From Pedosphaera parvula Ellin514 (GTDB taxonomy: Bacteria; Verrucomicrobiota; Verrucomicrobiia; Limisphaerales; JADJPG01), in NCBI GenBank assembly GCA_943332515.1, contig CALQPR010000021.1, positions 9,737 to 73,736 of the forward strand: a stretch of 64,000 bases of DNA, in the 5' to 3' direction. Below, in pieces: positions 34,770 to 54,111 of this stretch. How positions within the stretch are numbered: position 1 is the first letter of the stretch; each line of letters begins with the position of its first letter. The notes beneath the pieces were generated by a model. The model did no database searches, was not told where the DNA came from, and was given only the letters and a program-made list of their open reading frames with translations. Both the position numbers and the translations under genes were made by a program.

Positions 34770-34816
34770 CAATGTAATGACAATGAATGCGCGCTGGATA
34801 TACTTTGCATCACGCT

Positions 34817-35107: not shown

Positions 35108-35127
35108 GCGCTGCGGAATCAAATCGT

Positions 35128-36035: not shown

Positions 36036-36242
36036 TTCATGCACACCGCTGTTAACCCCTCGAAGAGCACCCGCCGCCGCTTGGATGTGGCGTGGACTGA
36101 TGTCTCGTGGGATCTGTCGTCTCTCCGTCTGCGAAAGCCGCCCTCGTTATTTTGGAGCACTGCCGGGTCATCAGCCGGAACTCGGGCTGGCGTTTCGCCA
36201 TCGGTCTCCTGTCGTCTGCCAAGTCCCTTTGCTTTTTCTCCT

Positions 36243-36956: not shown

Positions 36957-36958
36957 TC

Positions 36959-37747: not shown

Positions 37748-38496
37748 ACTGCCGCATCACCAACCCAGCCCATGCAACGGAGCGACGGGCTTTGACCGGG
37801 CGCATTGATCAGGTGGCCGGCTTCTCCCGCGCGACTCAAGGTTTCACCATGATCGAAATCGCCATCGCGCTCGGCGTGATCGGTTTCGCTCTTGTTGCCA
37901 TTCTGGGCATCCTGCCCTTCGGCCTCGAAGTTCAGCGCGACAACAGGGCAGAAACCATCATCAATCAGGACGCCACGTTCTGGATCGAGGCCATCCGCAA
38001 CGGTGCCACTGGCATGGATGACCTCACCAACTGGGTGGAAGAGATTTCCACGCCGGATTCTGCGGCGGCCAACAGCTCCTACACATTTCGCGCCGGTGGC
38101 TTGAGTGATTATCAATACAGTTACGGCAGCAACATCATCAGCCTCCTGAGCACCGCACGGCGTTTTGATAACGGTAGAGTCGAGGCGATCGTCACCTCCA
38201 TCAGCGGCTCTGCTGCTGAGAAGGAATTGAATGCAGACGCGCGCGTCATCGCCTTCCGCTACCGCCTTGCCGTCGAAATTATTTCGTATTCCACCAACGC
38301 CCCTTCCTTCGATTTTCTCAACGCTCCAGCCAGTTTCCCGTACCTGGATACTCTCCACGAACTGCGCCTGACCTTCTCCTATCCCTACACCGGCAAGGGC
38401 ACCGAGCCTCGCCGCAAGACCTTCCGTTCAACCATCAGCCGGAACGTGGTGACCAACGTGGTGGGGCCTCGTGAGTACTACCTCTTTGCTCAATGA
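37744..38496 (+). CDS. GspI-like minor pseudopilin
   Basis: The ATG overlaps the upstream TGA (ATGA). The motif is QG then FTMIEIAIALGVIGFALVAILGILP. Its size and position between the H-like and J-like genes fit GspI. Confidence 0.65.
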   Translation: MNCRITNPAHATERRALTGRIDQVAGFSRATQGFTMIEIAIALGVIGFALVAILGILPFGLEVQRDNRAETIINQDATFWIEAIRNGATGMDDLTNWVEEISTPDSAAANSSYTFRAGGLSDYQYSYGSNIISLLSTARRFDNGRVEAIVTSISGSAAEKELNADARVIAFRYRLAVEIISYSTNAPSFDFLNAPASFPYLDTLHELRLTFSYPYTGKGTEPRRKTFRSTISRNVVTNVVGPREYYLFAQ

Positions 38497-39470
38497 ACAT
38501 CCCTTACAACCCGCAGCGACCGGTGCCACTGGTGGGAACGAGTTTCACCTCGTCCCGTTTTGTTTCCCGCGCATTCTCTCTCATTGAGGTCATGGTGGCG
38601 GTGTCGTTGCTCTCCTTCATCATCGTCGGGTTGCTCGCCATGTTCTTCCAGGTCCAGCGTGCCTTTCGCGCTGGAACGGCGCAGGCGGACATCATGGAGG
38701 GCGGGCGTGCCACCATGAATCTCATCGTGCGCGACCTTCAGGAGATGACCGCTTCCGGCGTGGATTTGGTGACGAACTGTCTCGTCACCGCATCGTTCGG
38801 CGCGGCAGTGACCACTCAAGACCTCGTCAGCGGCAATCGGCCGCGCCAGAACTTTCAGCAGGATCTGTGTTTCCTCACCCGCAACAACGACGAATGGGTC
38901 GGGGTGGCCTACCGGCTGAGCAACTCCGTCAGTGGCGTGGGCACGCTCTACCGACTCGTCACTAACCAATTTATCGAAACTCTTCCGCTCAACCAGATGG
39001 TTGCCATCTCGAACATGAGCGGGCTGCTTCGTGCCTCCACTCCATATAACGACACCAACTTCGCCCGTGTGCTTGATGGCGTTGTCAGCCTTATCATCAC
39101 TCCCTACGACACCAACGGCGCGATTCACCCCAACAATGACCCTGACCTCGCCCGCGTGTTCCCGCCGGTGAATCCACAGGCAACCGATGCCTTTGACCGC
39201 ACCAACGCCTTCATCCACGTCATCAACCCGGACTTCTTCGCGTTCTTCAGCAACGCCCTCCCGGCCTATCTGGACATCGAGCTCGCCGTAATCGAACCCG
39301 CCACCCTCGCCCGGTTCAAAGCCCAATGGGATATCGATGTGACACAAAACGGACCGAACGGCCCGCCGACTCGCGCCACCAACTACCTCGCGAGGCGCAT
39401 TGGCCAGACCCACATATTTCGCCAGCGCATAGCCATTCGCCCGTCTGCGACAGAGATCAGCTCTCGTTGA
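38493..39470 (+). CDS. GspJ/PulJ-like minor pseudopilin
   Basis: The ATG overlaps the upstream TGA (ATGA). The motif is SRA then FSLIEVMVAVSLLSFIIVGLLAMFF. The segment then reads AQADIMEGGRATMNLIVRDLQEM, as in GspJ/PilW-type proteins. Confidence 0.65.
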   Translation: MNIPYNPQRPVPLVGTSFTSSRFVSRAFSLIEVMVAVSLLSFIIVGLLAMFFQVQRAFRAGTAQADIMEGGRATMNLIVRDLQEMTASGVDLVTNCLVTASFGAAVTTQDLVSGNRPRQNFQQDLCFLTRNNDEWVGVAYRLSNSVSGVGTLYRLVTNQFIETLPLNQMVAISNMSGLLRASTPYNDTNFARVLDGVVSLIITPYDTNGAIHPNNDPDLARVFPPVNPQATDAFDRTNAFIHVINPDFFAFFSNALPAYLDIELAVIEPATLARFKAQWDIDVTQNGPNGPPTRATNYLARRIGQTHIFRQRIAIRPSATEISSR

Positions 39471-39491: not shown

Positions 39492-42400
39492 ATGAAGCTT
39501 AGAATCCAGCGCCGTTGTTCAGCCACTTTTCCTCTAGTAAGGACGGTCTCGTCCGCGATGGTTACTCGGCTTTTTGGCGTCGTTAGCAGTCGAACCTCAT
39601 CCATGCGCAATCGCGGCGTCGCCCTCGTCATCACCCTCATCTTGCTGGCCGTCATCACCACACTGGCCATCGCGTTCCTCGGCCTGACCCGTGGCGAGAC
39701 CAAGTCCGTGGATGCCATGAACCGCACGACCGACGCCGAGATGGCCGCTGACAGCGCCCTCGAACGTGCCCGCGCCGAAATTCTTGCGCCCTTCATCGCG
39801 CGCAATACTGCGTTCCCCGGCAGCGAACGCATGGGGCCGGACTTCATGGTCTCCGTGGGCTCCGACACCAACCGCATCCGATCACAAGATGCTTCCCGGA
39901 ACCCAACACCGCCTGTGTTCGTGGAGACCAATCGCCCGAGCGGTCCCAAGGGTCCCTATGAAGATCGATTCTACCTGGATCTGAATCGCAACCGGACGTT
40001 CGAGAACACTGGATACGTCCCGGTGACGGACGACAGCTTCAATCAAGTTGGAGTCCAGACCGAATGGGCGGTGGGAGACCCGCAATGGATTGGCATTCTT
40101 CAAAACCCCCGCGTTGGCCATGCCAGCAGCAATCGCTACATCGCCCGCTACACCTTCATGGTTCAGCCTATCGGTCGCTCCCTCGACGCGAACTGGATTC
40201 ACAATGAAGGTGTGCCTCGCACGACAGGCACGCCGGGCTATTACCGCGAGCAGGGTGTCGGCTCCTGGGAACTCAATCTCGCAGGGTTTCTCTCTGACCT
40301 GAACACCAACTATTGGAACAGTGTTGCATCTCCCTATACCTACGCTTCCGATCCGTTGCCCAACAGGTTCGGAGGAACTGGCGCGGCATTTGTCGATGCG
40401 AACGAATTCCTCACCAACCGCTTTGGCAGTGGTCTCGATTGGGCGAGCCGGGTGTTCCCCGGCAGCGGCAACAGTTTCACGACGGATCAAATCGATTTGT
40501 TCGCCAATGGCTTCGTTAACACAGGCAATCCTGATGACAATGACCAGCCGGACAACCCCTGGCCCGGAGCATCGAGCAAAGTGAATTACTTCGCTCCGCA
40601 CGAATACTTCTCCAAGTTTACCAAGCCCAATGGATTCAAAACCCGCTTGCAGAACGCTTCCGCGCGCGGCAACTCGTATGATCGTTACACCTTCTACCGG
40701 ATGCTTGCGCAGATGGGCACCGACTCCGCCGAGGAAGAGGACGGCAAGGTCAACATCAACTACGTGAACGTCCGCTCGTGGGCCACAGGAGAACGGATTC
40801 TAGCGTCCGACATGATTCCTTGGTCCACCAATGCGGCTGACATTTATGTTCCCCGACTTGGACGCACTGTGAACATGGGGCGGCCTGTCCCTGAGATTTT
40901 TTTCCTGACCGTCGTTACCAACCTGCTGGCTCGCGAACCGTCTCTGGCCTTCATGGTGACGAACCGCATCAACGGAACCTTGTTCAGCGCCCCGATTTTT
41001 ACCAATCGCTCGACCTACACGACGAACACTCCGTTCAACGAACCTCTCTACACTGCCCGACTTCATCAGCTCATGCAGATCACGGCGAATATCTTCGACG
41101 CCACGATCACTAATAAGGTGGGCGAAGCGTTTCCATATTTTCCGACTGTCTTTCGCCCTTTCTTCACCGAGTCAAATGGCAACGTCTATATCACTGACTA
41201 TGGAGTAATGAACGAGACAGCAGACGCGTTCCGGACCAACCCTCAGTACAGGTGGGTGGATTTGGAAACTGGCGAAACTCTTTCAACCGCTCAAGGCTCA
41301 CTCAATCTCGTTTACGGCATTCCTCTCGTCATTGGTGCGCGTTCAGGTTTGCCCAGCTTCAACGAACTGGGCGTGGTGTCGCTTGCTCAAGCGACTCGCA
41401 AGCTAACGATGTCTCGCTCCACCCCTGGCACCCCGGCCAAAAAATGGGATCGACTCGAACAGCGGTTCCACCTCCAGGCACGGACCATGTTGCAGGTGGA
41501 AGCGCGAAATTCGCACACGAACCGGTATCCGCGTCCACTGCAAATGATCACCGAAAGCCGTCCGTATCTGGAATTGAAGGAACGCACCAATGGATTGGCC
41601 ATCGTGCGAACGGATTGGAAGACGGGTTCTACAAATAATTTTCCGCTTTCGTTTTGGGGCCGCGAAATCGTCGGCTCGGAGAACACCGGCAGCTCAAACT
41701 TGGTTCTCTCCCCGCTTTTCGTGACCAATCTGTTGGACTTGTTGATTGTAACTAACGCCGAATCTTACCTTCCTACTAACCAGTGGACGATGACGCTGAC
41801 CAACCGCCTGCTGTTCTATTTGATCGATCGAGATCCCAGGGTGCCCGGAGGCAGAATCATCGATGCCGTCACTCTGAATCGGCCCCACAACGTCTTCCAG
41901 ATCGGCACGCTCCTGGATTCTCCATGGAACGAGGCGGGTTCGCTTCGCGACATCTGGAATCCAAGGCGTCAAGGGACGGTTACAGCGGGAATCATGGAGC
42001 AAATTCGCATATCAAAAGATGCGAGCCTTACGCCTGAAGGGATCTGGGGTAATTGGGAGGACTCCGCGAACAAGGTGAAGTCGGCGCAGCATTTTGGAGA
42101 TTTTTATGACGACACGTCGAAGCTGGAGACGAATCAAGTCCCGTTCACGCCGTCCCGGCTTCTGGTTCAGGCCGATTATTATCAGGTTGATGATCCGTTG
42201 GTTCACTACACCTTCGAGGACTTGCGCGATGATCCTGATACAGGCAAAAAGAAGCTTGGCAGCGTAAACCTCTCGAGTGACTACACTAATCTCACCAAGA
42301 AGATATTTGGAAGGAACAAGCATTCCTTGGCTTGGAACAAGGGTGCGCTTGGGGCGGAGCTAAGCGGTGAACCCGCTGGCCAAGGGACATTAGACACCAC

Positions 42401-43328
42401 AATTCGTGATCCGGGCATAATTCACCCCTTTTACTGGAACTTCCCGAAAAATTCCTTTCCAAGCATCGGCTGGCTTGGACGGGTCCATCGTGGAACGCCA
42501 TGGCAGACCATCTATTTGAAAAGTCGCGGGTTAAGCCCGGCGGCGAACTGGATAGATCACACCGGTAATCAAAGGGTTGGTCATCCTGCGAGCGCGAACC
42601 AGATGCAGCCGGTTCGAGATTGGGAATTGCTTGATGTGTTCACGACCGCACCACATCCAAACGCCACGCGCGGTCGCCTGTCGATCAACCAGACGAATCC
42701 GGCGGCGTGGTCAGCCCTGCTTTCGGGTGTGCTTGCGAGCGGGGTTGAGCCCGACCCAAATGACGATGGTTTTGTCCGACCAACGAGCCCTTTGATGGGG
42801 CCTGCAGCCCTGAATTCGACCGTTCAACTGATCGCGCAATCCATCAACACCAACCGGGCGCGGTTCAACTCCAACAGTCTAAACCAGGGCGGGCAATATC
42901 ATGGAATCGGCCAATTGCTTGCGTCGCCCGAACTCACGGATTCATCTCCGATTCTCAAGGGCGATCCGACGCTGTTCGATCCCTTCATGCCTCACGGCAA
43001 CGCCCGCATCTACGACGAGGACTATGAGCGCATCCCGCAGCAGATTCTCTCGTTACTGAAGGTCGGCGAGCCGCGCTTCGTGGTCTATGCGTGGGGCCAA
43101 TCCCTCAAGCCGGCCCGGCGGGATCCAGACGATTCCGGGCCGTCGATCTTGCCCGCGGATGATCCAAAGTTTGGTCTCCGTGGTTTGTGCAGCAATTACC
43201 AGATCACCGGTGAAACGGCGACGCGCGCTGTCATCCGGGTGGAGTTTGATCGATTCCCAAACGGCCAGATCAACTACGCCCGGCCGCACGCCGTGGTGGA
43301 GAGTTTTAACATCATCCCGGTGGAGTAG
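39492..43328 (+). CDS. Giant GspK/PilX-like minor pseudopilin (about 1,240-1,280 aa)
   Basis: The hydrophobic N-terminus MRNRGVALVITLILLAVITTLAIAFLGL has no Glu+5, as in GspK. GspK-like signatures are NATRGRLSINQTNPAAWSALLSGV and DGKVNINYVN. The start is 39492 (21 nt after the J-like gene) or the internal ATGs at 39558 or 39603. Confidence 0.65.
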   Translation: MKLRIQRRCSATFPLVRTVSSAMVTRLFGVVSSRTSSMRNRGVALVITLILLAVITTLAIAFLGLTRGETKSVDAMNRTTDAEMAADSALERARAEILAPFIARNTAFPGSERMGPDFMVSVGSDTNRIRSQDASRNPTPPVFVETNRPSGPKGPYEDRFYLDLNRNRTFENTGYVPVTDDSFNQVGVQTEWAVGDPQWIGILQNPRVGHASSNRYIARYTFMVQPIGRSLDANWIHNEGVPRTTGTPGYYREQGVGSWELNLAGFLSDLNTNYWNSVASPYTYASDPLPNRFGGTGAAFVDANEFLTNRFGSGLDWASRVFPGSGNSFTTDQIDLFANGFVNTGNPDDNDQPDNPWPGASSKVNYFAPHEYFSKFTKPNGFKTRLQNASARGNSYDRYTFYRMLAQMGTDSAEEEDGKVNINYVNVRSWATGERILASDMIPWSTNAADIYVPRLGRTVNMGRPVPEIFFLTVVTNLLAREPSLAFMVTNRINGTLFSAPIFTNRSTYTTNTPFNEPLYTARLHQLMQITANIFDATITNKVGEAFPYFPTVFRPFFTESNGNVYITDYGVMNETADAFRTNPQYRWVDLETGETLSTAQGSLNLVYGIPLVIGARSGLPSFNELGVVSLAQATRKLTMSRSTPGTPAKKWDRLEQRFHLQARTMLQVEARNSHTNRYPRPLQMITESRPYLELKERTNGLAIVRTDWKTGSTNNFPLSFWGREIVGSENTGSSNLVLSPLFVTNLLDLLIVTNAESYLPTNQWTMTLTNRLLFYLIDRDPRVPGGRIIDAVTLNRPHNVFQIGTLLDSPWNEAGSLRDIWNPRRQGTVTAGIMEQIRISKDASLTPEGIWGNWEDSANKVKSAQHFGDFYDDTSKLETNQVPFTPSRLLVQADYYQVDDPLVHYTFEDLRDDPDTGKKKLGSVNLSSDYTNLTKKIFGRNKHSLAWNKGALGAELSGEPAGQGTLDTTIRDPGIIHPFYWNFPKNSFPSIGWLGRVHRGTPWQTIYLKSRGLSPAANWIDHTGNQRVGHPASANQMQPVRDWELLDVFTTAPHPNATRGRLSINQTNPAAWSALLSGVLASGVEPDPNDDGFVRPTSPLMGPAALNSTVQLIAQSINTNRARFNSNSLNQGGQYHGIGQLLASPELTDSSPILKGDPTLFDPFMPHGNARIYDEDYERIPQQILSLLKVGEPRFVVYAWGQSLKPARRDPDDSGPSILPADDPKFGLRGLCSNYQITGETATRAVIRVEFDRFPNGQINYARPHAVVESFNIIPVE

Positions 43329-43465
43329 GGCCGGGAGGATGAGGGGCGGGCGCGCGCATGGAGCGATTTCAACGGATGAAATGGGTTGGGATTTGTGACC
43401 GGGCGACCTCTGGTTGGGCCGCAAAAACCCTGTCGTAATCGAAGTATTTTGTGATTTAATACGTT

Positions 43466-46400
43466 ATGCAATTCAGAACGCGAACCTGGTTCATCATCAG
43501 CCTGTTGTTCTTCGTGGCTGCTGCCGTCTTCTGGCAACTGGGCGAGCGCAAGCTGGCGCGGGACAAGGCCGCGAAGAGCGCCGTGTCGGGTCCGGCTGCG
43601 GCTGGAGCCACTGCTGGTTCTTCCCTGACCAACGCACCCGTCGTCCCCGCTGCGGCCACCAATGCTTCCGTGCTCGCGACCAATGCCAATGATCCGCTGC
43701 GCTTTCGCTTGAGCAACACCACGCTGACGGAGCGCCAACTTCTGGATCGCGACCCGGCGTTGCTGCTGATGAACGCGCTGGTGGATACGGCATCCCCGGT
43801 GAATCTCCCCATCCCGGCGCATTTGCGGGCGCAGGGTGATCCAGGGAGTTACGTGGTCCAGTCTCGCGGGCCGTTGACGGACGCCTTCCGTGCCGCGCTC
43901 AAGCTGGCGGGAGTGGAGATCGTTTCTTACGTGCCGAACAACGCGTATCTGGTCCGCGCTTCAGCTGCTGCTGCGACGCAACTGGCCGCTCTTCCGCAAA
44001 CGCAGACGGTGCTGCCGTGGGAACCGTATTTCAAACTGGAGGATGAACTCTTGGCTCTGGCGGTGGAGCAAAAGCCCCTGCCAGTCACGCGCCAGTTGAA
44101 CGTGCTCGTGTATTCGGCGGACCGGCAGGCGGTCGAGACGACGCTGGCGGCGATGAACGTCGTGGTGATTGAAGCGGAGCGTTCGCCGTTTGGTGTGCTG
44201 TTGGTGGTGCGTCCGCCGCGGGATGCCGTGGTGGCGCTGGCGCAATTGCCGGGGGTGCAACGCATCGAGATCAATCGTCTGAAAGTAACGGCGAATGATC
44301 AGGCGCGCACGCGCCTGCGGGTTTCCACCAACGGCCTGCTCGCCGCGCCGTCGTTCCGGAATCTCACGGGGCAGGGCGTGCTGGTGAACGTGAATGACAC
44401 GGGCGTCGAGGGAATTCATCCGGCGCTCACCGGTCGCGTGCTCGGCCTCCAGACGGATCTCGAAGGTCACGGCACGCATGTCGCCGGAACCATTGCCGGC
44501 GACGGTGCGAACAGTCCCGCCGGGGCGATTCCGGGTTCAGTTACGAACGCGAGTTTTCGCGGCGTCGCTCCGGCGTCGAAGATTTTCGCCAACACCTTTG
44601 GCAACAGTGATGCGAACATGCAGGAGAGTGCGGCGGCGACGAACGCCTTCATTTCGAACAACAGCTGGGGCTACATCGACGGTGGCGGCTACACGCTCTC
44701 CGCGGCGAGTTGGGATGCGGCGGTGCGCGATGCCTTGCCCGGCGTGGAAGGATCGCAGCCGTTGCTCGCGGTGTTCGCGGCTGGTAACTCCGGCGCTTTT
44801 GGAATCGATGCGCCGGCGTCAGCCAAGAACGTCATTACGGTCGGCGCGTTGGAGAATCTTCGTGGCATCACCAACTTCGTGACGGTGATCGAGTATGCCG
44901 AAAGCAATCGCTTCCAGCCGTGGCTCGACATGACGGACAGCAGTAATCAGGTGGCGTCCTTTTCCAGCGTCGGGAATATCGGTCGTCGTCGCGAGGGTGA
45001 GTCCGGTCGGTTCAAGCCCGATGTGGTGGCTCCGGGAACGTTCGTGATCTCCGCTCGAGCGAGCACTTGGGTGCAGCCGACGAATTTATACAGCTATGAG
45101 ACGAGACGGATTCCTCTGGTCCGCCTAGACGCGGATGAATTCGAAGTGTACTCGGTTTTCGTCCCGCTCCACGGTGTGCAGATTGATGTCACCTGCCAGC
45201 CAAACCAGTTCACCGGACCGAATCCATTACCGCAGTTGCCAATCTACGTGCAGGAAGGGAGCGCACCGGCGGTGCCGGGCACTTCCGTGGGTGATAACCG
45301 AGCCACCGTGGGACCGCCGCTGGTGCCGGTCCCGCCGGGAACGTGGTATATCGCCGTCGAGAACAAGGGCAGCAACATCGCGCGCTTTGATGTCTCGATC
45401 ACGGTGACCATCACCAATAATTTGGGCGACGAGCCAGAGCAGTTCTTCAAGCTGAACGAGATACTGGCTCCAAACTACCGTTACGAAAGTGGCACCAGCA
45501 TGGCGGCCCCTGCGGTGTCCGGTGCGCTGGCGTTGATGCAGGAATATTTCGCAACGCTTGGTGCGACCAACAGCCCAGCGCTCATGAAGGCGCTGCTGAT
45601 CAACGGAGCGCGCTCCGCGAACGACGAGTATGACTTCGACGTCAGCGCGGATCGCAATCGGCAGGGCTGGGGCCTGGTGAATATCACGAACAGTGTTCCC
45701 GGCACCGCGACTGTCGGGCCCGGTTACGATTCCGCCCAACGCACGCTGACCAGTCCGACCATGGTCTGCTACGATCAGGTCAGCACCCGCGCGCTGGCCA
45801 CCGGACAGAGCTTCACAAAGAGCGTGAACATTGCTGCCAACGCCCGCACGTCGCCGCTGCGCTTTTCGCTGGTCTGGACCGATCCGCCGGGAAATCCCTC
45901 CGTGGGTGTGAAGCTGGTCAATGATCTGGACCTCGTGGTCTCGAACAACGTTACGCACGAGATCTTCGCCGGTAACTCATTCGGCCCCGGCAACACGTTC
46001 ACGTTTGGGAGCGATACCAATACCACGAACGGGTTGGTGCTCGATCGCGTGAACAATGTTGAGAATGTGTATGTCAGCGCCTCGTTCAACCAGCGCCTGT
46101 CGGATTCCTACACCGTCACCGTCTCCGCCCGCCGGGTGAATGTGAACGCCGTGACGGCGCATCCTGATGGCGTGGTGCAGGACTTCGCGCTGGTCATCTC
46201 CCATGGCAACCCGCGCACGGCCATCGGTTTCCCCATCACGTTGGGCAACGAGCCGATCATCGACGCGCCGCTGCCCGAGGTGACCGTCGTCACCAATGGC
46301 GTGCCGCTGTTGAACCAGCGGGCGGGTGCCAATTCGCCGCTGGTGGTGCCGGCTGGATTGGAGTTCACCAACGGTGTCCCGGCCCAATGGCATTTCTTCG

Positions 46401-49400
46401 TCGTCACGAATCAATTGCCGCAGTCAGACCCGCAATTCACCAACGCCCCGATTGCCGCCGCGACGAACATCGCCTTCGCCACGTTCCTTCCGCCCAATCT
46501 TTCACGCGCCCGCACCAACCGGTCGGACATCGATTTGTATGTGTCGCGCGATTCCAGTATCACAAATCTGAATCCGGCTGCCATCGCCGCCTCACGCCGT
46601 TCCCTCAAGCGGGGCGGCACGGAGTCGGTGGTGCTCGGGCTTGCCGATTCTTTGAGGGGTGGAGAGATCTTTTACGCTGGCGTAAAGTGCGAGGATCAGC
46701 AGGCGGCGAGCTTCGGCTTCTTTGCCGTCTCCAGCAGTTCGCCCTTCAGCAGCACGGATACGAACGGCAATGTGTACATGGAAGGCTATCCCTTCGGTGT
46801 GGAAATCCCGGATGGCACTCCCGCCGAGCCGCAGGCGGCGTTCATGTTCGCTTTCTCTACGGAACAGATCGTCATCCAGAATGTCGTTGTCACCAATTAC
46901 ATCACGCACACCAACGGCGGCGATTTGTTCGGCGCGCTGGATCTCGATGGCAGCAAGGTCTCGGTGCTCAATGCCAACCGTTCCTTCCACAGTCTTTTCC
47001 CTTACGAGTTCATTTACGACGACAGCGATTCGGGCGAAATTCAGGGGAGCACTCGTACGGATACGCCGGGAACACTTCGCAACTTTGTCGGTGAGGAAGG
47101 GCTGGGTGCGTGGCGATTGACGATGGTGGATAGCGCGCCCGGTGACACTGGCCAGGTGAACCGGCTCCTGATCAAGCTTGAGCCACGCAAGGAAGACCTG
47201 ACCAATGGCGTCGGCATCGTGGAGACGATTCTGCCGGGACGCTTTTTCTACACCGTGGTGGATGTCTCCGCGACGGTGACGAATCTCCAGGTGTGCGTCT
47301 CGCCGGACGCCGGCGTGGTCGAGGTGTATATCCGGCGCGCAGACTTTCCGGACCAGGACAATTACGACATCCTTGGCGTGGTCGGGCCGCCGGGGGATTG
47401 CATCAACCTGGGCCTGCGCGATTCGCCGCCGCTGTCTCGCGGCCGCTACTACATCGGCATCTACAACCCGAACGCGCTGGCGGTGACGGTGGGCATCAAG
47501 GTGAATCTCCAGCATGATTTGAGGAAGGGATCGACCCTCCGCTTCCGTGGTGGCGATGGGGAGCTGATCGTCGATGACGCGGTGACGACGTCCACGCAGT
47601 TCGTCGGCTACAACGGGATCATCTCAGATGTGGAAGTGGGAATCCGCATCGCGCATGAGCGGGTGTCGGATCTCGTGCTTCACCTGGTCAGTCCGGAAGG
47701 GACGCGTCTGTTGCTCACGGAGAATCGCGGAAGAGACACGGCGGATTATGGGTTCGGGACGTTGCAGACGAACTTTTTTGCTCTGCCGGTTGACCAAACT
47801 AATAATCCCACTTCTGTAACGAATGTGTTCGGTCCGATCCTGCCGGAAGGCACCATCAGTATCACGTATGATTTCGGGAACCAGTTCACCGACCGAATGA
47901 CCGTCTATTACGATGGGATTCGGATCTATGACACAGGAGTTGTGCTGGGACCGGGTTCGTTCTCGGTTGATTATGGTCCGGGTCTGGCGACGAACTTTGT
48001 CGTCATCATGAATGAGGATGGGAATCCATTTGGAGGCACCGGATATACTTACACGCCGACCGTGTACACCAGTTACCACTATTCCACCTTCACCGAGAGC
48101 ACCGAGCGCGCGCGTCTGCCCATCAAGTTCGAGCCGCCGCCGTTCACAAACTTCAACTACTACGCCACGAACTACGTCACTAACGTCACGCTGGTGGCCG
48201 ATGGCTTCGAGGATCGTTTCCGGGGACCACGATTGCTCGGCACGGGAGCGAACCTCACCGGCTGGCAGGTCACGACCGGCAGCGTTAACGTCGTGACGAA
48301 CCTCTCCAATCTCGCGACCAACACATTCCTCGCGGCCTATGAGGGGTTGAGGTTCATCGATCTCAATGGTGTCACCAATGGTGTGATCGCGACGAACCTG
48401 ACCACGGTTCCTGGCACGTCCTATCGCGTCAGCTACGTCTATGCAAAGAACCCTGCCAATCCCAGCGACACCACGGCGGACATCCGGCTGCTGGATACCA
48501 ACAGCATTCGCTTCCAGAAGGAACTCGTCATCGCCTCGGCAGCGACGTGGCGAACCGGCGCGTTCTTCTTCAATGCGCTGGATGACCGCACCACGCTGGA
48601 AGTCATGTCCACCACGGCCAGCGATTCCGGCGTGCTCTTCGACATCTTCAGGGTCGAGCAGATCTCTACGAACATCGTCGCGGGCATCTATTATCTGCCC
48701 GAGGAACCGCTCACGCCGCTCTTTGGCCAGAACGCGTTTGGCAACTGGACGCTGGAGATTCTCGACAACCGCGTCGGTGGTGGCGTCACCAATTCGCTGC
48801 TCGGCTGGAAGCTGAACCTCACCTTCGTAAACACGAATCCTCCGGCCATCCAGCTCTTCAACGACACCAACTACTGCCTGACCATGCAGGCAGATGAGAC
48901 GGTGTACTTCTACGTGGACGTGCCGATCACCGCTTCCGCAGCGACGAACTTCTTCAGTGGCAGCGATCAACTGGATGTCTTCTACAACCAGAGCGGCCTG
49001 CCGGCATTGCATGAACCGCCGGACACTGCCTTCTTCTACAACGTGCTGGATGGGCAGACGGTTCTGGGCATCGATGGCTGGAACAGCATTGATGACGCCG
49101 GGGGCTTCGCGGGAGGTTCCGTCACCCCGACGCTCGCACCGGGCAAGCGCTACTACCTCGCGCTGCACAATCGCGGCACCGGCACCAACGGCGTGTGTGT
49201 TCGCGTGGCGTTCGATGAGCTTTCGCCGAACCTCGTGGGCATCATCCCGCTCACCAACCAGTGTTTTAGCTATTCCGGCGTCGTCACGAATGCCGGGGCG
49301 ATTGATTATTACTCGTTCGATGTTGTTTCTAGCAACGCGCTGGGTGTTCGCTTCTCGGTGACGAATATTATCGGAGGGTCGTCGAACGACGTGAACCTCG

Positions 49401-52400
49401 TGGTGCGTCGTGGCGTGCCGCTGCCGAACCTCACGCGTTACACCGGGATCAGCACTAATGCCTCGCCGTTGGATGGGGAGTTCATCGAAGTGGCGGACTT
49501 CTTCCAGACGACGCTCGCTGGTCGTTGGTATATTGGCGTCATTCACACCACGGTGAACCCGGTCGCCTACGACGTGTGCGCCGAGGAAGTGGGGGGCGAC
49601 ATCACCGAGGTTTTCAATAACGTATTGCAACCCGCGCAGAACGCTGCGGTGACCAATGCCGGCGACATCAGCTACTTCAAGATTCTGATCTCGCCACGCA
49701 CCTTCCTTGCTGACTTCCAGCTCACAAATATCGTCGGCGGCAGCAACATGGACCTCTACCTCAGCTCGGGCACCATGCAGCCGTTGTTTGGCACGCCGAC
49801 GAACTGGCTGTACGCCTCGACGAACTTCAGTCCTGCGCCGGCTCCCAATAACTTCGAGTCCAACCGTGTCTCGGCGTTCTCCTCGAGCCAGCCGCTGACT
49901 CCGGGATGGTGGTTCGTCGCAGCCGTCAACAAGTCGGCAGGGCCGGTGGATTTCGGAGTCCATGTCACGGAGTACCAGACAAACCTTCCCTACCTCCAGC
50001 TCACGAACGGTCTCGCGTTCTGCAAAACCCTGATCGATTCCAATGACATCGGCTTCTACTGGTTCGATGTCTCCCCGGATGCATTGCAGGTGGACTACGA
50101 GGTCTTCAACCTAAAGGATGATGCGGACCTGTTCGCGCATCCGCTGTTTGAGCTCCCGCCGCCCGGCTTCCTGCGCTTCCTCGATCTCGCGAGCACAAAC
50201 CTGCTGACGGCGGACGAGTTTATTGGGACGACCTTCACGACCGGCCAGCGGCCGTTTCCCTTCAGTCTCTTGAGCTCTCGTGGTCCGTGGTATCTGACGG
50301 TCAAACCCAAGGTGCCGATTCCGGTGCCGGCCCAGGTCTATCCCATCGATTACTGCATCCGCGCCACCGAGATCACCGCGCGTGATGTTCAGCCGCTGAC
50401 CAACGGACTGGCGGTTTGCAAAACCATCCCTGGCCGCGACACCAACACGCTCTATACGGGAGTGCAGTTCCATTCCATCGATGTCGTCGGCGTTCCCTTG
50501 CAGGCGACGTTCGAGACCTTCGGGGCCAATGGCAACGTGGACCTCTATGTGCAGCGCAACCTGCCGTTCACCAATTACAGCACCTACACCAATGGCGGTT
50601 CCAGTTTGTATCCGTACTCCGGCGAGCAGTTGGGGACGTTGGGAGAATACATCTGCATCGGCACGAACACGACGCCCGTGGCGCTGGCTCCCGGCCGCTG
50701 GTACGTGGTGGCCGTAAACCGTGAGGTGGTTTCGGTGGATTACTGCCTGCGTGCGTCCTTCGTCTCCTCGCAGAACCTGGTTCAGATCGGCAACGGCGAG
50801 ACCTTCTGCCGCACTCTTGGCATCGCCAATGGCGGGCCGATCTCCGGTCAGGATTACTACGTGTTCCGCGTCGCCACCAACGTCGTGCAGGCGACCTTCG
50901 AAACTCTTTCGTCGAGCGGCAACGTGGATCTTTTCCTCACCAGAAACCTGTGCCTGACCAACTTCAGCACCTACAACGCCGCGCTCGCGCCGTATCCCTA
51001 CTACAGCACGAACCTCGGCACGCAGCAGGATCTCATCTGCCTCGGCACGAACACCACACCTGTGAACCTGGGTCCGGGCGATTGGTATCTCACCGTGGTC
51101 AACCGGGAACCCCTGACGCCCGTGGACTATTGCGTCCGCTCCACGCAGTTGGTCTCGACCAACTTCATCCGCGTCACGAACAGCGGTGCCATCTGCAACG
51201 TGGCGGGTGTGGGAACAAATGACGGCACCGCCGCCACCGGCATCGATTACTACATCATCGACGTCAGCAGCAGTCCGGTGCTGATGAACTTCCAGACCTA
51301 CAACGCCAGCGGTAACGTGGACCTCTACGTCACGCGCGATCCATGCCTGCCGAACTTCGCGGCGTTCGATGCCGCCACCACGGACTATCCGTACTCCAGC
51401 ACGCTGCCGGGCACTGCCGCGGAATGCCTGAGCGTCACCAGCACCTCCGTGCCGCAGGTGCTGACGAACGGTGAATGGTATGTGGCCGTGGTGAACCGCT
51501 CTGCCACGCCGGTGAGCTACTGCTTCCTCGCCACGCCGTTTGCAACCGACCCTGCCACGCCCTTGACCAACCGCGCTCCGCTTTGTGCCCAGACTGTCAC
51601 CAACGGCAGCGACACGAACCTCGTCGGCGCGAATTACTACGCCTTCGACGTGCCCACCAACGCGCTGCAAGTGACGTTCGAGGTCTATGGCGCGAGCGGC
51701 AATGTGGACCTCTACGTGAGCGACGGCTTCTGCTTCGAGAACCGCGACACTTTCTCTCTCGCCACCACGAACGCCGCCTACTTCAGCACGAATCTCGGCG
51801 TGACCAGCGAGAGCATTCTCGTTGCAGGTTCATCCTCGCCCGCGCCGCTTGTGACCGGCCCTTGGTATCTCGCCGTGGTGAATCGTGAGCCTTCACCGGT
51901 CGCCGTAGATTATTGCGTCAAGGTGACCGCGCTTCTGACCACGGATGTCGTCGGGCTCACCAATGGCATTGGTTACACGCCGTCCAGCGCGCTGGCTCCG
52001 CGCAACGTCGCGTTCTACCACTACAAGATTTCGCCAAACGCGGTGCAGGCGACCTTCCAGATTATCAATGCCGACGGCGACGTGGACCTCTACGTCGAGC
52101 GCGGCTTCAGTCCGGCGGACATTTATTCGTCCAGCTACGCCAGCACCAACGCTGGCATGATCGAGGAACGGGTCACCGTTTCGACCAGCTCCCCTGTGCC
52201 GCTCACGCCGGTCGAGTGGTTCCTCGCGGTGACGAACTCTGATGCCTCCGCCGTGAACTACACCGTGCGTGTCACCGAGGTGCTCGATACCGGAGTCATT
52301 CGCCTCCTCAACGCTCTTCCTTACACGAACACCGTCGCCGCCCTCGGTTCCCTCACCGGGTTGCCGGCGAACTATTACGTCTTCACCGTCTCGAACGACG

Positions 52401-53137
52401 CCGTGCGCGCGCAGTTCGAAGTGCTGGCTCCGAGCGGCGACGTGACCCTGGTCGCGCGTCAGGGACTACCCTTGCCGGACCTTTCCACCGCCACCGTGTT
52501 CAGCACGAACAGCGGGACGACATCGGAGCTCATCGTGCTGTTCACGAACTCGGTGCCGATTGCATTGACGCCGGGTGACTGGTATCTCGGGGTGTTGAAC
52601 AACACGAGCAACGACGTGACCTACGCCGCAATTGCCACGCAATACTTCAGCGAGGGGACCAACATTACTCCCGGCCCGATCACGATCAGTAGCAATCTAT
52701 TTTGCACGAGCTACGCGGGTGTTCTGCCGGGTGTGAACTACTACATCGAAGGAGCTGCAAACTTCAATCCGCCCATCCTCTGGGTGCCGGTTACTCCGAC
52801 CATCAAGGCCACCGGCACCACGCTCAACTGGTGCATCGCGCTGCCGAACACCTACAGCTTCTTCCGCCTGCGCGAAGGTCTGTCGCCGCTGTCCTCGGGC
52901 AGTCCGACGACCTTCACTGCGTCGGGTTTCGCCGCCGGTGCCTTGGGATTGCAATGGAACGCGCCGCCGGGATTGCGGTTTGTCGCGGAATATACCGAGT
53001 CCCTGTTCCCGCCCGTCTGGCAGCCGTATCCCGATTACATCACGTCCACCAACACGGTTTACAGCTTCAATGACGACGGTTCCAGGACGGCTCCGCTCGG
53101 GCCTGCCCGCTATTACCGGTTCTTCCAAGTCCCTTGA
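43466..53137 (+). CDS. Giant membrane-anchored subtilisin-family (S8) serine protease with P-domains, a DUF642-like module and about 10 PPC-like modules (3,223 aa)
   Basis: The N-terminal TM anchor is WFIISLLFFVAAAVFW. The catalytic triad motifs are NVNDTG (Asp codon 44396-44398), HGTHVAG (His codon 44468-44470) and SGTSMAAP (Ser codon 45497-45499). P-domain-like segments are ITHTNGGDL...GAWRLTMVDSAPGDTG and IAHERVSDLVLHLVSPEGTRLLL...GNWTLEILDNRVGG. PPC-like GNVDLYV signatures recur. Confidence 0.9.
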   Translation: MQFRTRTWFIISLLFFVAAAVFWQLGERKLARDKAAKSAVSGPAAAGATAGSSLTNAPVVPAAATNASVLATNANDPLRFRLSNTTLTERQLLDRDPALLLMNALVDTASPVNLPIPAHLRAQGDPGSYVVQSRGPLTDAFRAALKLAGVEIVSYVPNNAYLVRASAAAATQLAALPQTQTVLPWEPYFKLEDELLALAVEQKPLPVTRQLNVLVYSADRQAVETTLAAMNVVVIEAERSPFGVLLVVRPPRDAVVALAQLPGVQRIEINRLKVTANDQARTRLRVSTNGLLAAPSFRNLTGQGVLVNVNDTGVEGIHPALTGRVLGLQTDLEGHGTHVAGTIAGDGANSPAGAIPGSVTNASFRGVAPASKIFANTFGNSDANMQESAAATNAFISNNSWGYIDGGGYTLSAASWDAAVRDALPGVEGSQPLLAVFAAGNSGAFGIDAPASAKNVITVGALENLRGITNFVTVIEYAESNRFQPWLDMTDSSNQVASFSSVGNIGRRREGESGRFKPDVVAPGTFVISARASTWVQPTNLYSYETRRIPLVRLDADEFEVYSVFVPLHGVQIDVTCQPNQFTGPNPLPQLPIYVQEGSAPAVPGTSVGDNRATVGPPLVPVPPGTWYIAVENKGSNIARFDVSITVTITNNLGDEPEQFFKLNEILAPNYRYESGTSMAAPAVSGALALMQEYFATLGATNSPALMKALLINGARSANDEYDFDVSADRNRQGWGLVNITNSVPGTATVGPGYDSAQRTLTSPTMVCYDQVSTRALATGQSFTKSVNIAANARTSPLRFSLVWTDPPGNPSVGVKLVNDLDLVVSNNVTHEIFAGNSFGPGNTFTFGSDTNTTNGLVLDRVNNVENVYVSASFNQRLSDSYTVTVSARRVNVNAVTAHPDGVVQDFALVISHGNPRTAIGFPITLGNEPIIDAPLPEVTVVTNGVPLLNQRAGANSPLVVPAGLEFTNGVPAQWHFFVVTNQLPQSDPQFTNAPIAAATNIAFATFLPPNLSRARTNRSDIDLYVSRDSSITNLNPAAIAASRRSLKRGGTESVVLGLADSLRGGEIFYAGVKCEDQQAASFGFFAVSSSSPFSSTDTNGNVYMEGYPFGVEIPDGTPAEPQAAFMFAFSTEQIVIQNVVVTNYITHTNGGDLFGALDLDGSKVSVLNANRSFHSLFPYEFIYDDSDSGEIQGSTRTDTPGTLRNFVGEEGLGAWRLTMVDSAPGDTGQVNRLLIKLEPRKEDLTNGVGIVETILPGRFFYTVVDVSATVTNLQVCVSPDAGVVEVYIRRADFPDQDNYDILGVVGPPGDCINLGLRDSPPLSRGRYYIGIYNPNALAVTVGIKVNLQHDLRKGSTLRFRGGDGELIVDDAVTTSTQFVGYNGIISDVEVGIRIAHERVSDLVLHLVSPEGTRLLLTENRGRDTADYGFGTLQTNFFALPVDQTNNPTSVTNVFGPILPEGTISITYDFGNQFTDRMTVYYDGIRIYDTGVVLGPGSFSVDYGPGLATNFVVIMNEDGNPFGGTGYTYTPTVYTSYHYSTFTESTERARLPIKFEPPPFTNFNYYATNYVTNVTLVADGFEDRFRGPRLLGTGANLTGWQVTTGSVNVVTNLSNLATNTFLAAYEGLRFIDLNGVTNGVIATNLTTVPGTSYRVSYVYAKNPANPSDTTADIRLLDTNSIRFQKELVIASAATWRTGAFFFNALDDRTTLEVMSTTASDSGVLFDIFRVEQISTNIVAGIYYLPEEPLTPLFGQNAFGNWTLEILDNRVGGGVTNSLLGWKLNLTFVNTNPPAIQLFNDTNYCLTMQADETVYFYVDVPITASAATNFFSGSDQLDVFYNQSGLPALHEPPDTAFFYNVLDGQTVLGIDGWNSIDDAGGFAGGSVTPTLAPGKRYYLALHNRGTGTNGVCVRVAFDELSPNLVGIIPLTNQCFSYSGVVTNAGAIDYYSFDVVSSNALGVRFSVTNIIGGSSNDVNLVVRRGVPLPNLTRYTGISTNASPLDGEFIEVADFFQTTLAGRWYIGVIHTTVNPVAYDVCAEEVGGDITEVFNNVLQPAQNAAVTNAGDISYFKILISPRTFLADFQLTNIVGGSNMDLYLSSGTMQPLFGTPTNWLYASTNFSPAPAPNNFESNRVSAFSSSQPLTPGWWFVAAVNKSAGPVDFGVHVTEYQTNLPYLQLTNGLAFCKTLIDSNDIGFYWFDVSPDALQVDYEVFNLKDDADLFAHPLFELPPPGFLRFLDLASTNLLTADEFIGTTFTTGQRPFPFSLLSSRGPWYLTVKPKVPIPVPAQVYPIDYCIRATEITARDVQPLTNGLAVCKTIPGRDTNTLYTGVQFHSIDVVGVPLQATFETFGANGNVDLYVQRNLPFTNYSTYTNGGSSLYPYSGEQLGTLGEYICIGTNTTPVALAPGRWYVVAVNREVVSVDYCLRASFVSSQNLVQIGNGETFCRTLGIANGGPISGQDYYVFRVATNVVQATFETLSSSGNVDLFLTRNLCLTNFSTYNAALAPYPYYSTNLGTQQDLICLGTNTTPVNLGPGDWYLTVVNREPLTPVDYCVRSTQLVSTNFIRVTNSGAICNVAGVGTNDGTAATGIDYYIIDVSSSPVLMNFQTYNASGNVDLYVTRDPCLPNFAAFDAATTDYPYSSTLPGTAAECLSVTSTSVPQVLTNGEWYVAVVNRSATPVSYCFLATPFATDPATPLTNRAPLCAQTVTNGSDTNLVGANYYAFDVPTNALQVTFEVYGASGNVDLYVSDGFCFENRDTFSLATTNAAYFSTNLGVTSESILVAGSSSPAPLVTGPWYLAVVNREPSPVAVDYCVKVTALLTTDVVGLTNGIGYTPSSALAPRNVAFYHYKISPNAVQATFQIINADGDVDLYVERGFSPADIYSSSYASTNAGMIEERVTVSTSSPVPLTPVEWFLAVTNSDASAVNYTVRVTEVLDTGVIRLLNALPYTNTVAALGSLTGLPANYYVFTVSNDAVRAQFEVLAPSGDVTLVARQGLPLPDLSTATVFSTNSGTTSELIVLFTNSVPIALTPGDWYLGVLNNTSNDVTYAAIATQYFSEGTNITPGPITISSNLFCTSYAGVLPGVNYYIEGAANFNPPILWVPVTPTIKATGTTLNWCIALPNTYSFFRLREGLSPLSSGSPTTFTASGFAAGALGLQWNAPPGLRFVAEYTESLFPPVWQPYPDYITSTNTVYSFNDDGSRTAPLGPARYYRFFQVP
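49230..52650 (+). repeat. Nine tandem PPC-like coding modules (about 120-138 aa each) inside the giant protease gene
   Basis: The (N/D)(V/M/A)(D/N/T)L(Y/F/V) signature codons recur at about 49390, 49748, 50122, 50536, 50924, 51316, 51704, 52082 and 52442. The spacing is 358-414 nt. Each module also carries LTNG..., DYY.F.V...LQ.TFE and W(Y/F).AV.N. Confidence 0.7.
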
Positions 53138-54069: not shown

Positions 54070-54111
54070 GAAATGTGTTGAGAGTCAGAGGTTGAGAATT
54101 GAGCCCGATCA

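Follow-up and report, generated by a model that had tools for sequence, protein, structure and literature searches.

A giant KP-43-like subtilase encoded at the end of a conserved pseudopilin cassette in Verrucomicrobiota

Introduction

A gene for a subtilase of 3,223 residues follows a row of pilin-like genes in the 64-kb window, the whole stretch of DNA analyzed here. What kind of protease is this, what are its many additional modules, and what connects it to the pilins? Soil and freshwater harbour large numbers of Limisphaerales/Pedosphaera Verrucomicrobiota, whose action on polymers and on other cells is poorly understood. Members of the protease family are annotated merely as 'S8 family peptidase' or 'hypothetical'. 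A literature search found no paper on the family, including under Verrucomicrobia pseudopilins, type IV pili, subtilases and 'Verru_Chthon'.

Results

The gene and its family

The 3,223-aa reading frame proposed in an earlier note on this DNA is present in both the ORF list and the translation (Table 1). An independent ENA contig encodes a 100% identical protein, P0001. The same core architecture recurs in more than 1,570 relatives of 2,100-4,050 aa, and at least 566 subtilase loci are found in GTDB species genomes, almost all of them from Verrucomicrobiota. The architecture had been regarded as highly atypical. It is instead standard for a Verrucomicrobiota family with more than 1,500 members.

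The C-terminal part of the protein is repetitive at the protein level, as might be seen if the length of the gene were an assembly artefact of expanded or collapsed repeats. However, no DNA-level tandem repeats were found in the gene, and the protein identity of the modules to a reference module is 22-43%, reaching up to 49% in a local self-BLAST. Orthologues from independent assemblies are 3,168-3,254 aa long. Ten tandem modules are kept in 14 of the 15 closest relatives (P0002-P0016, 49-89% identical where full-length), which come from independent samples. Together with the identical protein on the second assembly, the divergent modules refute an artefact for practical purposes. Its probability is negligible, and the gene stands as built.

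Table 1. Features of the pseudopilin cassette and of the giant subtilase, with positions in the window.
Feature	Position	Strand	Protein residues	Remarks
BrnT-like and CopG/BrnA-like pair	34787..35430	+		Cassette head; BrnT-like 34787-35107, CopG/BrnA-like 35128-35430
Five consecutive prepilin-type genes	35361..39470	+		35361-36035, 36039-36956, 36941-37747, 37744-38496, 38493-39470; Pfam N_methyl in all five
Giant GspK-like pseudopilin	39492..43328	+		1,278-aa ORF
Giant subtilase gene	43466..53137	+	1-3223	3,223 aa plus stop; ATG start
N-terminal hydrophobic segment	43487..43543	+	8-26	Signal-anchor or signal peptide
Conserved N-terminal region	43703..44353	+	80-296	Putative propeptide, ~215 aa
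S8 catalytic domain, part 1	44354..45067	+	297-534	D311, H335, N441; PF00082 aa 302-529, profile 1-212
PPC-like β-sandwich within S8 domain	45068..45472	+	535-669	Between KP-43 residues 234 and 247
S8 part 2 and KP-43-type jelly-roll domain	45473..46147	+	670-894	S678; KP-43 247-424, SubHal 246-423
Isolated PPC-like module	46391..46765	+	976-1100	Repeat HMM aa 976-1058, iE 7e-7
P-domain 1, complete	46877..47164	+	1138-1233	PF01483, 26.1 bits (cutoff 21), profile 2-81 in one stretch
Isolated PPC-like module	47183..47509	+	1240-1348	Family HMM
P-domain 2, N-terminal half	47624..47758	+	1387-1431	PF01483 profile 2-46, E 1.1e-8
Unnamed all-β module nested in P-domain 2	47786..48220	+	1441-1585	AF2 strands, pLDDT about 80
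DUF642 / choice-of-anchor-C-like module nested in P-domain 2	48230..48649	+	1589-1728	
P-domain 2, C-terminal half	48713..48820	+	1750-1785	PF01483 profile 53-86
Ten tandem PPC/CBD-like modules	48836..52645	+	1791-3060	
C-terminal module 1	52646..52885	+	3061-3140	1-4 copies in relatives
C-terminal module 2, terminal cap	52886..53134	+	3141-3223	Ends ..RYYRFFQVP

Catalytic domain

The protease domain belongs to Peptidase_S8 (PF00082, E 1.4e-37, 130-138 bits against a cutoff of 21.8). The catalytic residues D311 (NDTG), H335 (GHGTH) and S678 (GTSMA) lie in their motifs at the codons previously assigned to the triad, and N441 is the oxyanion residue. The columns of the triad and the oxyanion Asn are ≥90% conserved in the 39-45 homologues aligned. 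The best solved relatives are KP-43 (1wmd, E 7.8e-31) and SubHal (5fax, E 1.9e-30). The phmmer matches to both span aa 294-534 and 670-894, which places the protein in the KP-43 type of S8A; the first part of the domain aligns with KP-43 residues 13-234. The KP-43 jelly-roll domain (aa ~772-894) is located immediately C-terminal to the catalytic domain. Judged from its sequence, the giant subtilase is apparently an active protease of the KP-43 type.

The earlier note had mentioned kexin/furin-type subtilases in connection with the P-domains. The protease itself is not of that type, the best solved relative being KP-43, and kexin/furin chains are absent from the PDB matches at E≤1e-3. A kexin-type (S8B) catalytic domain was ruled out by the closest PDB relatives, KP-43 and SubHal, and by the lack of a P-domain adjacent to the catalytic domain. 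The two PF01483 modules are situated 350-600 aa further downstream and do not abut the protease; the first begins ~240 aa past the jelly-roll domain. Their role is probably accessory or in display rather than in stabilizing the catalytic domain.

The catalytic domain is split by a PPC-like module. Residues 593-651 within this insert match the tandem modules of the C-terminal array in a self-BLAST (E 1.7e-4). The insert is also matched by the family HMM in P0002, P0026, P0032 and P0084.

N-terminal region

The protein had been described as carrying a single N-terminal hydrophobic segment, which hydropathy analysis confirmed. Residues 7-27 form the sole strongly hydrophobic region, and no other 19-residue Kyte-Doolittle window in the protein exceeds 1.6. 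The motif of this segment, RTRTWF.ISLLCF..A..FWQLG, is conserved among the N-termini of homologues. The segment may be a retained membrane anchor, as the earlier note proposed, or a cleaved signal peptide.

The conserved region that follows it, aa 80-296, is found in nearly all of 120 homologues and is 62% column-identical. Neither Inhibitor_I9 nor any other prodomain model matches aa 1-300 at E≤1 in a Pfam search with the single sequence. The N-terminal regions of 14 homologues likewise gave no prodomain match in Pfam, and a profile made from them found nothing relevant in the PDB. The proposed prodomain-like character of the region was thus not borne out, and the label of putative propeptide reflects its position. 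Because no prodomain model matches, release of the enzyme from its N-terminal segment is a conjecture. The hydrophobic segment lies upstream of the putative propeptide, and therefore maturation could detach the enzyme. If it does, the C-terminal modules are more likely to be the end by which the enzyme is attached.

P-domains and nested lectin-type modules

P-domain 1, which had been placed at 46830-47190, is recovered there as a PF01483 match. P-domain 2 had been suspected to be split, and its two segments indeed match complementary halves of the PF01483 profile with ~310 aa between them. When aa 1380-1435 were joined to aa 1744-1795 in silico, the full match was restored as one P_proprotein match over profile positions 2-86 (59 bits, E 4.9e-16). 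By profile matching, aa 1387-1431 and 1750-1785 are one P-domain with a nested insert. P-domain 1 and the spliced P-domain 2 both belong to PF01483.

The insert contains two modules. The first is an unnamed all-β module that is present in most homologues; a Pfam search of aa 1441-1585 found no match. The second corresponds to the DUF642-like segment that had been noticed in the gap. PF04862 (DUF642) matches aa 1593-1720 with 34.7-39.1 bits, above its cutoff of 27, and TIGR04362 (choice-of-anchor C) reaches 62.4 bits, under its cutoff of 120. A Foldseek search with a model of aa 1375-1925 matched only generic multi-jelly-roll and CBM proteins at low TM-score, and such matches say nothing on packing between the two P-domain halves.

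In relatives, the loop of P-domain 2 carries different lectin-type modules, namely DUF642, LamG, C-type lectin or L-type lectin. LamG is found in P0029 and P0045, Lectin_C in P0030 and P0064, an L-type lectin in P0078, and two DUF642 modules in P0053. The loop of P0011 holds the unnamed module alone, and that of P0113 measures about 47 aa. These differences raise the testable idea that the P-domain is a scaffold showing interchangeable lectin modules.

PPC-like modules and C-terminal end

About ten PPC modules had been counted previously. The tandem array does contain ten, and the total is 13, with one inside the S8 domain and two isolated modules that flank the complete P-domain 1. The tandem units are in phase, 117-133 aa each, and start at aa 1791, 1919, 2046, 2171, 2304, 2434, 2562, 2693, 2823 and 2940. 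The family HMM matches the isolated module at aa 1240-1348 in the query as well as in each of the 48 homologues listed. The equivalent of the other, at aa 976-1100, is matched in P0043, P0044 and P0113.

The assignment of these modules to PPC is weak in Pfam and stands on profile and structure comparisons. The highest PF04151 (PPC) score is 25.3 bits, under the cutoff of 25.9, and three of the ten tandem modules match the model at E≤1. The profile of the tandem modules has a sole match in the PDB, the PPC domain 2luw from a Vibrio metalloprotease (E 0.003). The AF2 model of the C-terminal array matches the tandem collagen-binding domains s3a-s3b of ColG (5iku) in Foldseek, with an E of 5e-8.

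Whether the number of modules varies across orthologs had been posed as a check, and it does: relatives contain about 2 to 13 tandem PPC-like units, and the family HMM matches 3-15 times per protein in total. AF2 modeling of three PPC-like modules and both C-terminal modules gave a pLDDT of 91.6 and a pTM of 0.79. These values over five consecutive modules suggest rigid packing between them. The long stalk proposed in the earlier note is plausible on the basis of this model, and the PPC-like array may be regarded as a stalk of variable length, an idea that is open to test.

The two modules at the C-terminus are related to each other, in agreement with the duplication suggested before; hhalign aligned aa 3061-3140 with aa 3141-3223 at a probability of 96.7% (E 4e-10). 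A local HMM search of ten distinct loci found the second of them, the cap, as the final ~80 aa of every S8 protein. Three further large exoproteins from related loci carry weaker matches to it at their very C-terminal ends.

Pseudopilin cassette

A conserved cassette of genes ends with the giant subtilase. The gene upstream of it encodes a giant GspK-like protein, with a likely true start at M38 (39603) and the leader MRNRG/VALVITL; P0127, which is 100% identical, starts at M38. In NCBIfam, the N-terminus only is matched, by Verru_Chthon cassette protein A (2e-8) and by T2SS_GspK (4.4e-4). A profile of the GspK-like protein found no PDB match even at E≤10, and a Pfam search found nothing. The best NCBIfam matches of the five prepilin-type genes are, in order, GspG-like, GspG-like, GspH or cassette-D-like, cassette-B-like, and GspJ or cassette-C-like.

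Gsp equivalogs are the best or near-best matches for the cassette pilins, all below cutoff. The Verru_Chthon models also fall far short of their curated cutoffs (A, 32.7 against 332 bits; B, 23.6 against 51; C, 17.4 against 256; D, 41.8 against 70), with the alignment confined to the N-terminal ~35-63 positions. At the head of the cassette, the BrnT-like protein scores 23.1 bits with Pfam BrnT_toxin, below cutoff, and its partner 39.2 bits with CopG_antitoxin, above cutoff. The only promoter-like site on the + strand within 34000-53600 is at 34777-34804.

In 50 of 54 genome loci (93%), the GspK-like gene immediately precedes the S8 gene in the same orientation, and is itself preceded by five pilin-like genes where gene calls existed. 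Of the four exceptions, three are additional copies in MAGs where another copy is cassette-linked. The same gene order is found between unrelated flanks in seven further metagenome loci (L001, L003, L005, L006, L009, L010 and the P0053 locus); the BrnT/CopG-like pair is kept in L003, L005, L006, L009 and the P0053 locus. The best-120 lists of the S8 and GspK-like families have 19 length-matched contigs in common. No cassette lies next to the genes of the ~2,500-aa paralogues P0078 and P0081, nor next to the S8 gene at four genome loci, and therefore the protease family can exist without an adjacent one. Among the large ORFs of the window that were scanned with Pfam, none is a secretin, GspE/PilB ATPase, GspF/PilC or prepilin peptidase.

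Discussion

The upstream pseudopilin operon is the strongest clue to the function of the giant subtilase. From the observed architecture and synteny we infer a possible mechanism, in which a lectin-targeted protease on a rigid stalk is exported or displayed together with a pseudopilus. We prefer this reading tentatively and would place it a little short of an even chance. The zymogen would enter via the Sec system, using its N-terminal segment, and removal of the N-terminal region would free the mature enzyme from the hydrophobic segment. The invariant C-terminal cap module would attach the enzyme to the fibre or to the cell surface. The ten PPC-like modules would be a rigid spacer, tens of nanometres long. 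At the distal head, the protease would be directed to glycan-bearing substrates by the lineage-variable lectin module on the P-domain loop. Outer-membrane export, or display, would need the pseudopilus or pilus formed by the co-encoded pilins. Several findings weigh against this reading: the large ORFs scanned in the window include no gene for a secretin, ATPase, platform protein or prepilin peptidase, the cassette proteins score far under the Gsp and Verru_Chthon cutoffs with matches limited to their N-terminal helices, no prodomain model fits the N-terminal region, and some copies of the protease have no adjacent cassette.

The same features could belong to an ordinary, freely secreted multi-module degradative protease, with PPC and lectin modules that bind insoluble substrate and a proximity to the pilins that reflects co-regulation or a shared promoter. 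PPC, CBD, LamG and lectin modules are the usual substrate-binding appendages of secreted hydrolases, and the Foldseek matches are CBM-rich proteins. The copies that lack the cassette (P0078, P0081 and four genome loci) are consistent with free secretion, and the window also encodes two DPP-IV-type peptidases at other places, which suggest a proteolytic lifestyle. However, the synteny in 50 of 54 loci is kept across species despite N-terminal regions that are only 45-59% identical and flanks that are unrelated, which is much tighter than co-regulation normally needs. The invariance of the terminal cap module also argues against this explanation, as does the sequence conservation of the N-terminal hydrophobic motif, a feature that generic signal peptides do not usually show. 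On balance, free secretion appears possible but rather unlikely.

A different role for the subtilase is suggested by its strict adjacency to the GspK-like gene: it may mature or remodel the fibre itself, acting on the GspK-like cap protein or the pilins and not on external substrates. Subtilases that affect pili have been described, for example SprP of P. aeruginosa, which is reported to affect type IV pilus functions (PMC3937732). Yet 13 PPC-like modules, two P-domains and a lineage-variable lectin are more than a processing enzyme requires, and the exchange of lectin modules suggests that external targets are diversifying; we consider fibre maturation improbable. Less probable still is that the protein serves as an adhesin or fibre without catalytic activity, its S8 domain surviving as a structural relic. 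Such a role would suit a very long protein made mostly of β-sandwich modules, but none of the residues D, H, S and oxyanion Asn is lost, and their columns are strongly conserved among the aligned homologues.

Beyond this, Verrucomicrobia subdivision 3 (Limisphaerales/Pedosphaerales) may possess a dedicated pseudopilus or pilus-like fibre. It would consist of two major-type and three minor-type pilins with a ~1,250-aa GspK-like cap, and would serve specifically to export a giant protease, or carry it at the tip, with a lectin in the P-domain loop that is swapped between lineages. Such a fibre-coupled, retargetable protease system would have no described precedent. This broader proposal is possible but rather unlikely. 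The very tight link to the pseudopilins could provide this cassette and the related Verru_Chthon cassettes with their first candidate for a function. A physical coupling would mean a new cargo and display mode for the type IV filament superfamily.

The giant subtilase combines features of several known systems. KP-43 and SubHal are its best solved sequence relatives, and their catalytic and jelly-roll domains align with it. KP-43 has 434 aa, whereas the giant subtilase has a 135-aa PPC-like insert in the catalytic domain and ~2,300 more accessory residues. With kexin/furin (S8B) it shares PF01483 jelly-roll modules, two in number; unlike in those enzymes, they are not beside the catalytic domain, and one is interrupted. 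Its PPC-like modules resemble PPC and collagen-binding domains (PF04151; 2luw; ColG 5iku) in fold, by a weak profile match and in their C-terminal accessory position. Secreted proteases usually contain one or two PPC domains, in contrast to 13 copies here, ten in tandem and one inside the catalytic domain. The PA-domain subtilases, such as C5a peptidase and plant SBT3, also have a domain nested in the catalytic domain, but the inserted fold and its position differ.

The cassette pilins have prepilin N-termini, as do the T2SS pseudopilins, and their order resembles GspG-H-I-J-K. The cassette shares with Verru_Chthon cassette protein A (TIGR02600, a profile of 1,296 positions) a GspK-like protein of ~1,300 aa without Glu5. 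Unlike the Verru_Chthon cassette (TIGR02600, 02598, 02599 and 02596), it adds two GspG-like genes, the BrnT/CopG-like pair and the giant subtilase. The Verru_Chthon cassette (a TIGRFAMs entry) is itself not known to have an assigned function. TcpF and CofJ are secreted effectors encoded in pilus operons and are exported with the help of minor pilins. The giant subtilase may be like them in principle only, as a secreted protein encoded together with the pilins.

Organization of the subtilase

The open reading frame at 43466..53137 (+) starts with ATG and encodes 3,223 residues. Whole-protein Pfam searches matched Peptidase_S8 (E 1.4e-37), P_proprotein (E 4.2e-17, three stretches) and DUF642 (E 1.9e-8). 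The finding of the earlier note is real and its domain map largely correct. The catalytic residues D311, H335 and S678 lie at the codons it assigned, and N441 is the oxyanion Asn. The enzyme is probably active, as each of these four columns is conserved to 90% or more when 38-44 full-length homologues are aligned.

The best solved relatives by sequence are KP-43 (1wmd, E 7.8e-31) and SubHal (5fax), and no kexin or furin chain is among the solved-structure matches. The kexin analogy drawn previously is therefore wrong for the catalytic domain. The KP-43/SubHal alignment falls into two blocks, aa 294-534 with KP-43 residues 13-234 and aa 670-894 with residues 247-424. This indicates that about 135 residues (aa 535-669) are inserted in the catalytic domain, and that aa ~772-894 form the C-terminal jelly-roll domain of the KP-43 type.

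As described before, the protein has a single N-terminal hydrophobic segment; aa 7-27 is its sole strongly hydrophobic 19-residue window. The segment is kept across the family as RTRTWF.ISLLCF..A..FWQLG, which is unusual for a generic signal peptide. The region at aa 80-296 is also strongly conserved among homologues. It matches no propeptide model or solved structure, and its description as a prodomain is not supported. Two long antisense reading frames within the gene, 47624-49963 (-) of 779 aa and 50111-51670 (-) of 519 aa, most likely do not code for protein and arise from the ~60% GC content.

An exchangeable loop in the second P-domain

The first P-domain is one complete match (aa 1138-1233, 26.1 bits, profile positions 2-81). 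The second is split, with profile positions 2-46 at aa 1387-1431 and 53-86 at aa 1750-1785. Joining aa 1380-1435 to aa 1744-1795 in silico restored a single full-length P-domain (profile 2-86, 59 bits, E 4.9e-16), so the split reported earlier is a nested insertion. The inserted loop holds an unnamed all-beta module and a DUF642 module, whose top NCBIfam match, ‘choice-of-anchor C’, scores under the model cutoff. AF2 confidently predicts aa 1375-1925 to be all-beta (pLDDT 84.2), and Foldseek aligns the model to generic CBM and multi-jelly-roll proteins.

Landmark segments were placed on 120 homologues and the loop regions searched with Pfam. The loop is about 47 aa in P0113, and carries the unnamed module only in P0011 and the ~2,170-2,340-aa forms. 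The subtilase and its orthologues have the unnamed module plus DUF642. Other homologues contain two DUF642 modules (P0053), Laminin_G_3 (P0029), Laminin_G_3 and DUF642 (P0045), a C-type lectin with a weak sub-threshold DUF642 match (P0030), a C-type lectin and Laminin_G_3 (P0064), or an L-type lectin (P0078). By sequence comparison the loop is a hot spot of module exchange. The inserted modules all have lectin-like folds, which suggests a retargetable recognition head. In the P0064 loop (aa ~1481-2161), Lectin_C (insert positions 344-420) is closely followed by a Laminin_G_3 match covering profile positions 60-151 only, which may indicate that domains are nested at a third level.

The repeat array and the C-terminal cap

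Iterative HMM searches identified ten tandem modules, all in phase, between aa 1791 and 3060, plus one isolated copy each at aa 976-1100 and at aa 1240-1348. The insert in the catalytic domain is similar to the downstream modules (self-BLAST E 1.7e-4), and the family HMM also matches it in several homologues. The earlier count of about ten PPC-like modules holds for the tandem array, and the total is 13. Support for a PPC-like identity is consistent and modest. The whole-protein PPC score is 21.5 bits (cutoff 25.9), three of the ten tandem modules match Pfam PPC (best E 5e-4), and the repeat profile has a single PDB match, a PPC domain from a Vibrio metalloprotease (2luw, E 0.003). The AF2 model of aa 2693-3223 (pLDDT 91.6, pTM 0.79) matches the tandem collagen-binding domains of ColG and other tandem beta-sandwich ectodomains. 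The high pTM across its five modules suggests that they are rigidly arranged. The array varies within the family: proteins have 3 to 15 family-HMM matches, or about 2 to 13 tandem modules. Among the nearest 15 relatives (P0002-P0016, with 49-89% identity for the full-length ones), 14 have ten tandem modules and P0011 has nine.

The protein ends with a pair of homologous ~80-aa modules (hhalign probability 96.7%, E 4e-10), in agreement with the duplication noted before. Neither has a Pfam or NCBIfam name. The second is an invariant cap, forming the final ~80 aa of every family member fetched. Three further large exoproteins from related loci (an LTD/CotH/Ig, a pro-kumamolisin/Ig and a LamG protein) match the cap weakly (E 8e-5 to 0.013) at their very C-terminal ends. 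The similarity hints that these ends have a common function in attachment or sorting, and the cap may represent a so far unnamed C-terminal domain with that function in Verrucomicrobiota.

Genomic context and conservation

Immediately upstream, on the same strand, are five genes with prepilin cleavage/methylation motifs, followed by a giant GspK-like (K-like) pseudopilin gene. The N-terminus of the 1,278-aa K-like frame matches Verru_Chthon cassette protein A and GspK. An identical database protein begins at M38, the likely true start, which leaves MRNRG, a leader of five residues, ahead of VALVITL. More than 1,275 proteins make up the K-like family; all are annotated ‘hypothetical’, and neither a Pfam domain nor a PDB relative is found for them. 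In the protein encoded here, about 1,200 residues lack any annotation. No secretin, ATPase or platform protein gene was found among the window ORFs scanned.

The BrnT/CopG-like pair is kept at the cassette head in at least five other loci (L003, L005, L006, L009 and the P0053 locus). Since a fixed position is unusual for a mobile toxin-antitoxin pair, it may be an operon regulator. The sole + strand promoter-like site in the 19.6-kb stretch scanned, itself weak evidence, is at the start of the pair (34777-34804).

The synteny is tight. The same gene order, with unrelated flanks, is found in L001, L003, L005, L006, L009, L010 and the P0053 locus, whose S8 proteins are 39-54% identical to the subtilase and 2,174-3,580 aa long. 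Upstream sequence of 6 kb or more was available for 54 loci, and 50 of these have the K-like gene directly upstream on the same strand. Three exceptions are second copies (L030, L041, L082); the fourth is L055. The MAGs of L030 and L041 also hold a cassette-linked copy (pairs L030+L031 and L037+L041), and L082 shares contig CAIWJG010000562.1 with L027, whose upstream sequence is too short for the K-like check. Some MAGs have two family members, at times about 10 kb apart on one contig; in none of them was the K-like gene seen ahead of both copies. The cassette is absent beside two ~2,500-aa paralogues. Nineteen contig sizes are common to the K-like family and the top-120 list of the S8 family.

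Species genomes in GTDB contain at least 566 family loci, and for nearly all of them the label is Verrucomicrobiota, Limisphaerales, Pedosphaera or ‘subdivision 3’. Calling the architecture atypical was overstated, since a large family of Verrucomicrobiota proteins is built this way as standard. We found no literature on this family. Several MAGs with the locus (e.g. L013, L044, L086) are titled ‘uncultured Bifidobacterium’, ‘Klebsiella’, ‘Akkermansia muciniphila’ or ‘Chitinophaga pinensis’, which look like mislabels.

Downstream, phoU and pstBAC are convergent with the subtilase gene; phosphate-uptake genes are not kept beside the cassette in other loci. Pairing of DUF1501 with PSCyt1/PSCyt2/PSD1 is typical of Planctomycetes and Verrucomicrobia, and the pair here fits the taxonomic assignment.

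Positions of genes and modules in the window, the subtilase (aa) and related loci
Feature	Position	Strand	Remark
DUF1501 gene	4800-6308	-	
PSCyt1/PSCyt2/PSD1 gene	6251-8752	-	
DPP-IV/prolyl-oligopeptidase (S9) gene	18402-21257	+	N-terminal extension about 370 aa, weak VHL-beta match
Adjacent S9 gene	21316-23433	+	
BrnT-like gene	34787-35107	+	cassette head; sub-threshold match
CopG/BrnA-like gene	35128-35430	+	cassette head; above-threshold match
Pilin-like gene 1		+	best NCBIfam match GspG
Pilin-like gene 2		+	best NCBIfam match GspG
Pilin-like gene 3		+	Verru_Chthon cassette D, GspH next (NCBIfam)
Pilin-like gene 4		+	best NCBIfam match Verru_Chthon cassette B
Pilin-like gene 5		+	ComGE, then Verru_Chthon cassette C and GspJ, all weak (NCBIfam)
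K-like gene	39492-43328	+	
Unnamed all-beta module	aa 1441-1585		second P-domain insertion
DUF642 module	aa 1593-1720		second P-domain insertion; Pfam
phoU, pstB, two permease genes, PBP-like gene, then putative porin gene	53401-59898	-	phosphate uptake
Exoprotein with cap-like end	L005 27212-30742	-	
Exoprotein with cap-like end	L009 23169-26525	-	
Exoprotein with cap-like end	L009 16584-19352	-	

Discussion

Two features are of interest: the P-domain loop, with its swapping of modules, and the coupling to the pseudopilin cassette, which is conserved. We propose that the protease would be lectin-targeted, at the end of a rigid PPC stalk and held by the C-terminal cap. It would be exported or displayed through a fibre of the co-encoded pilins, and the sole role of the N-terminal segment would be to insert the zymogen through Sec. 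The coupling to the cassette could also be read in other ways: the enzyme may be secreted freely and share no more than its regulation with the cassette, or it may be a protease that matures the fibre.

Two further readings are essentially excluded. The conserved catalytic residues argue against a non-catalytic adhesin. An assembly artefact is rejected because the gene contains no DNA tandem repeats and its length is consistent between independent assemblies.

The catalytic domain of the enzyme is of the KP-43 type, jelly-roll domain included. The K-like N-terminus is without Glu5, as is GspK. Gsp and Verru_Chthon scores of the cassette proteins are far under the family cutoffs and the alignments are limited to N-terminal helices; judged from these matches, the cassette is an analogue of the Gsp/Verru_Chthon systems, not a member.
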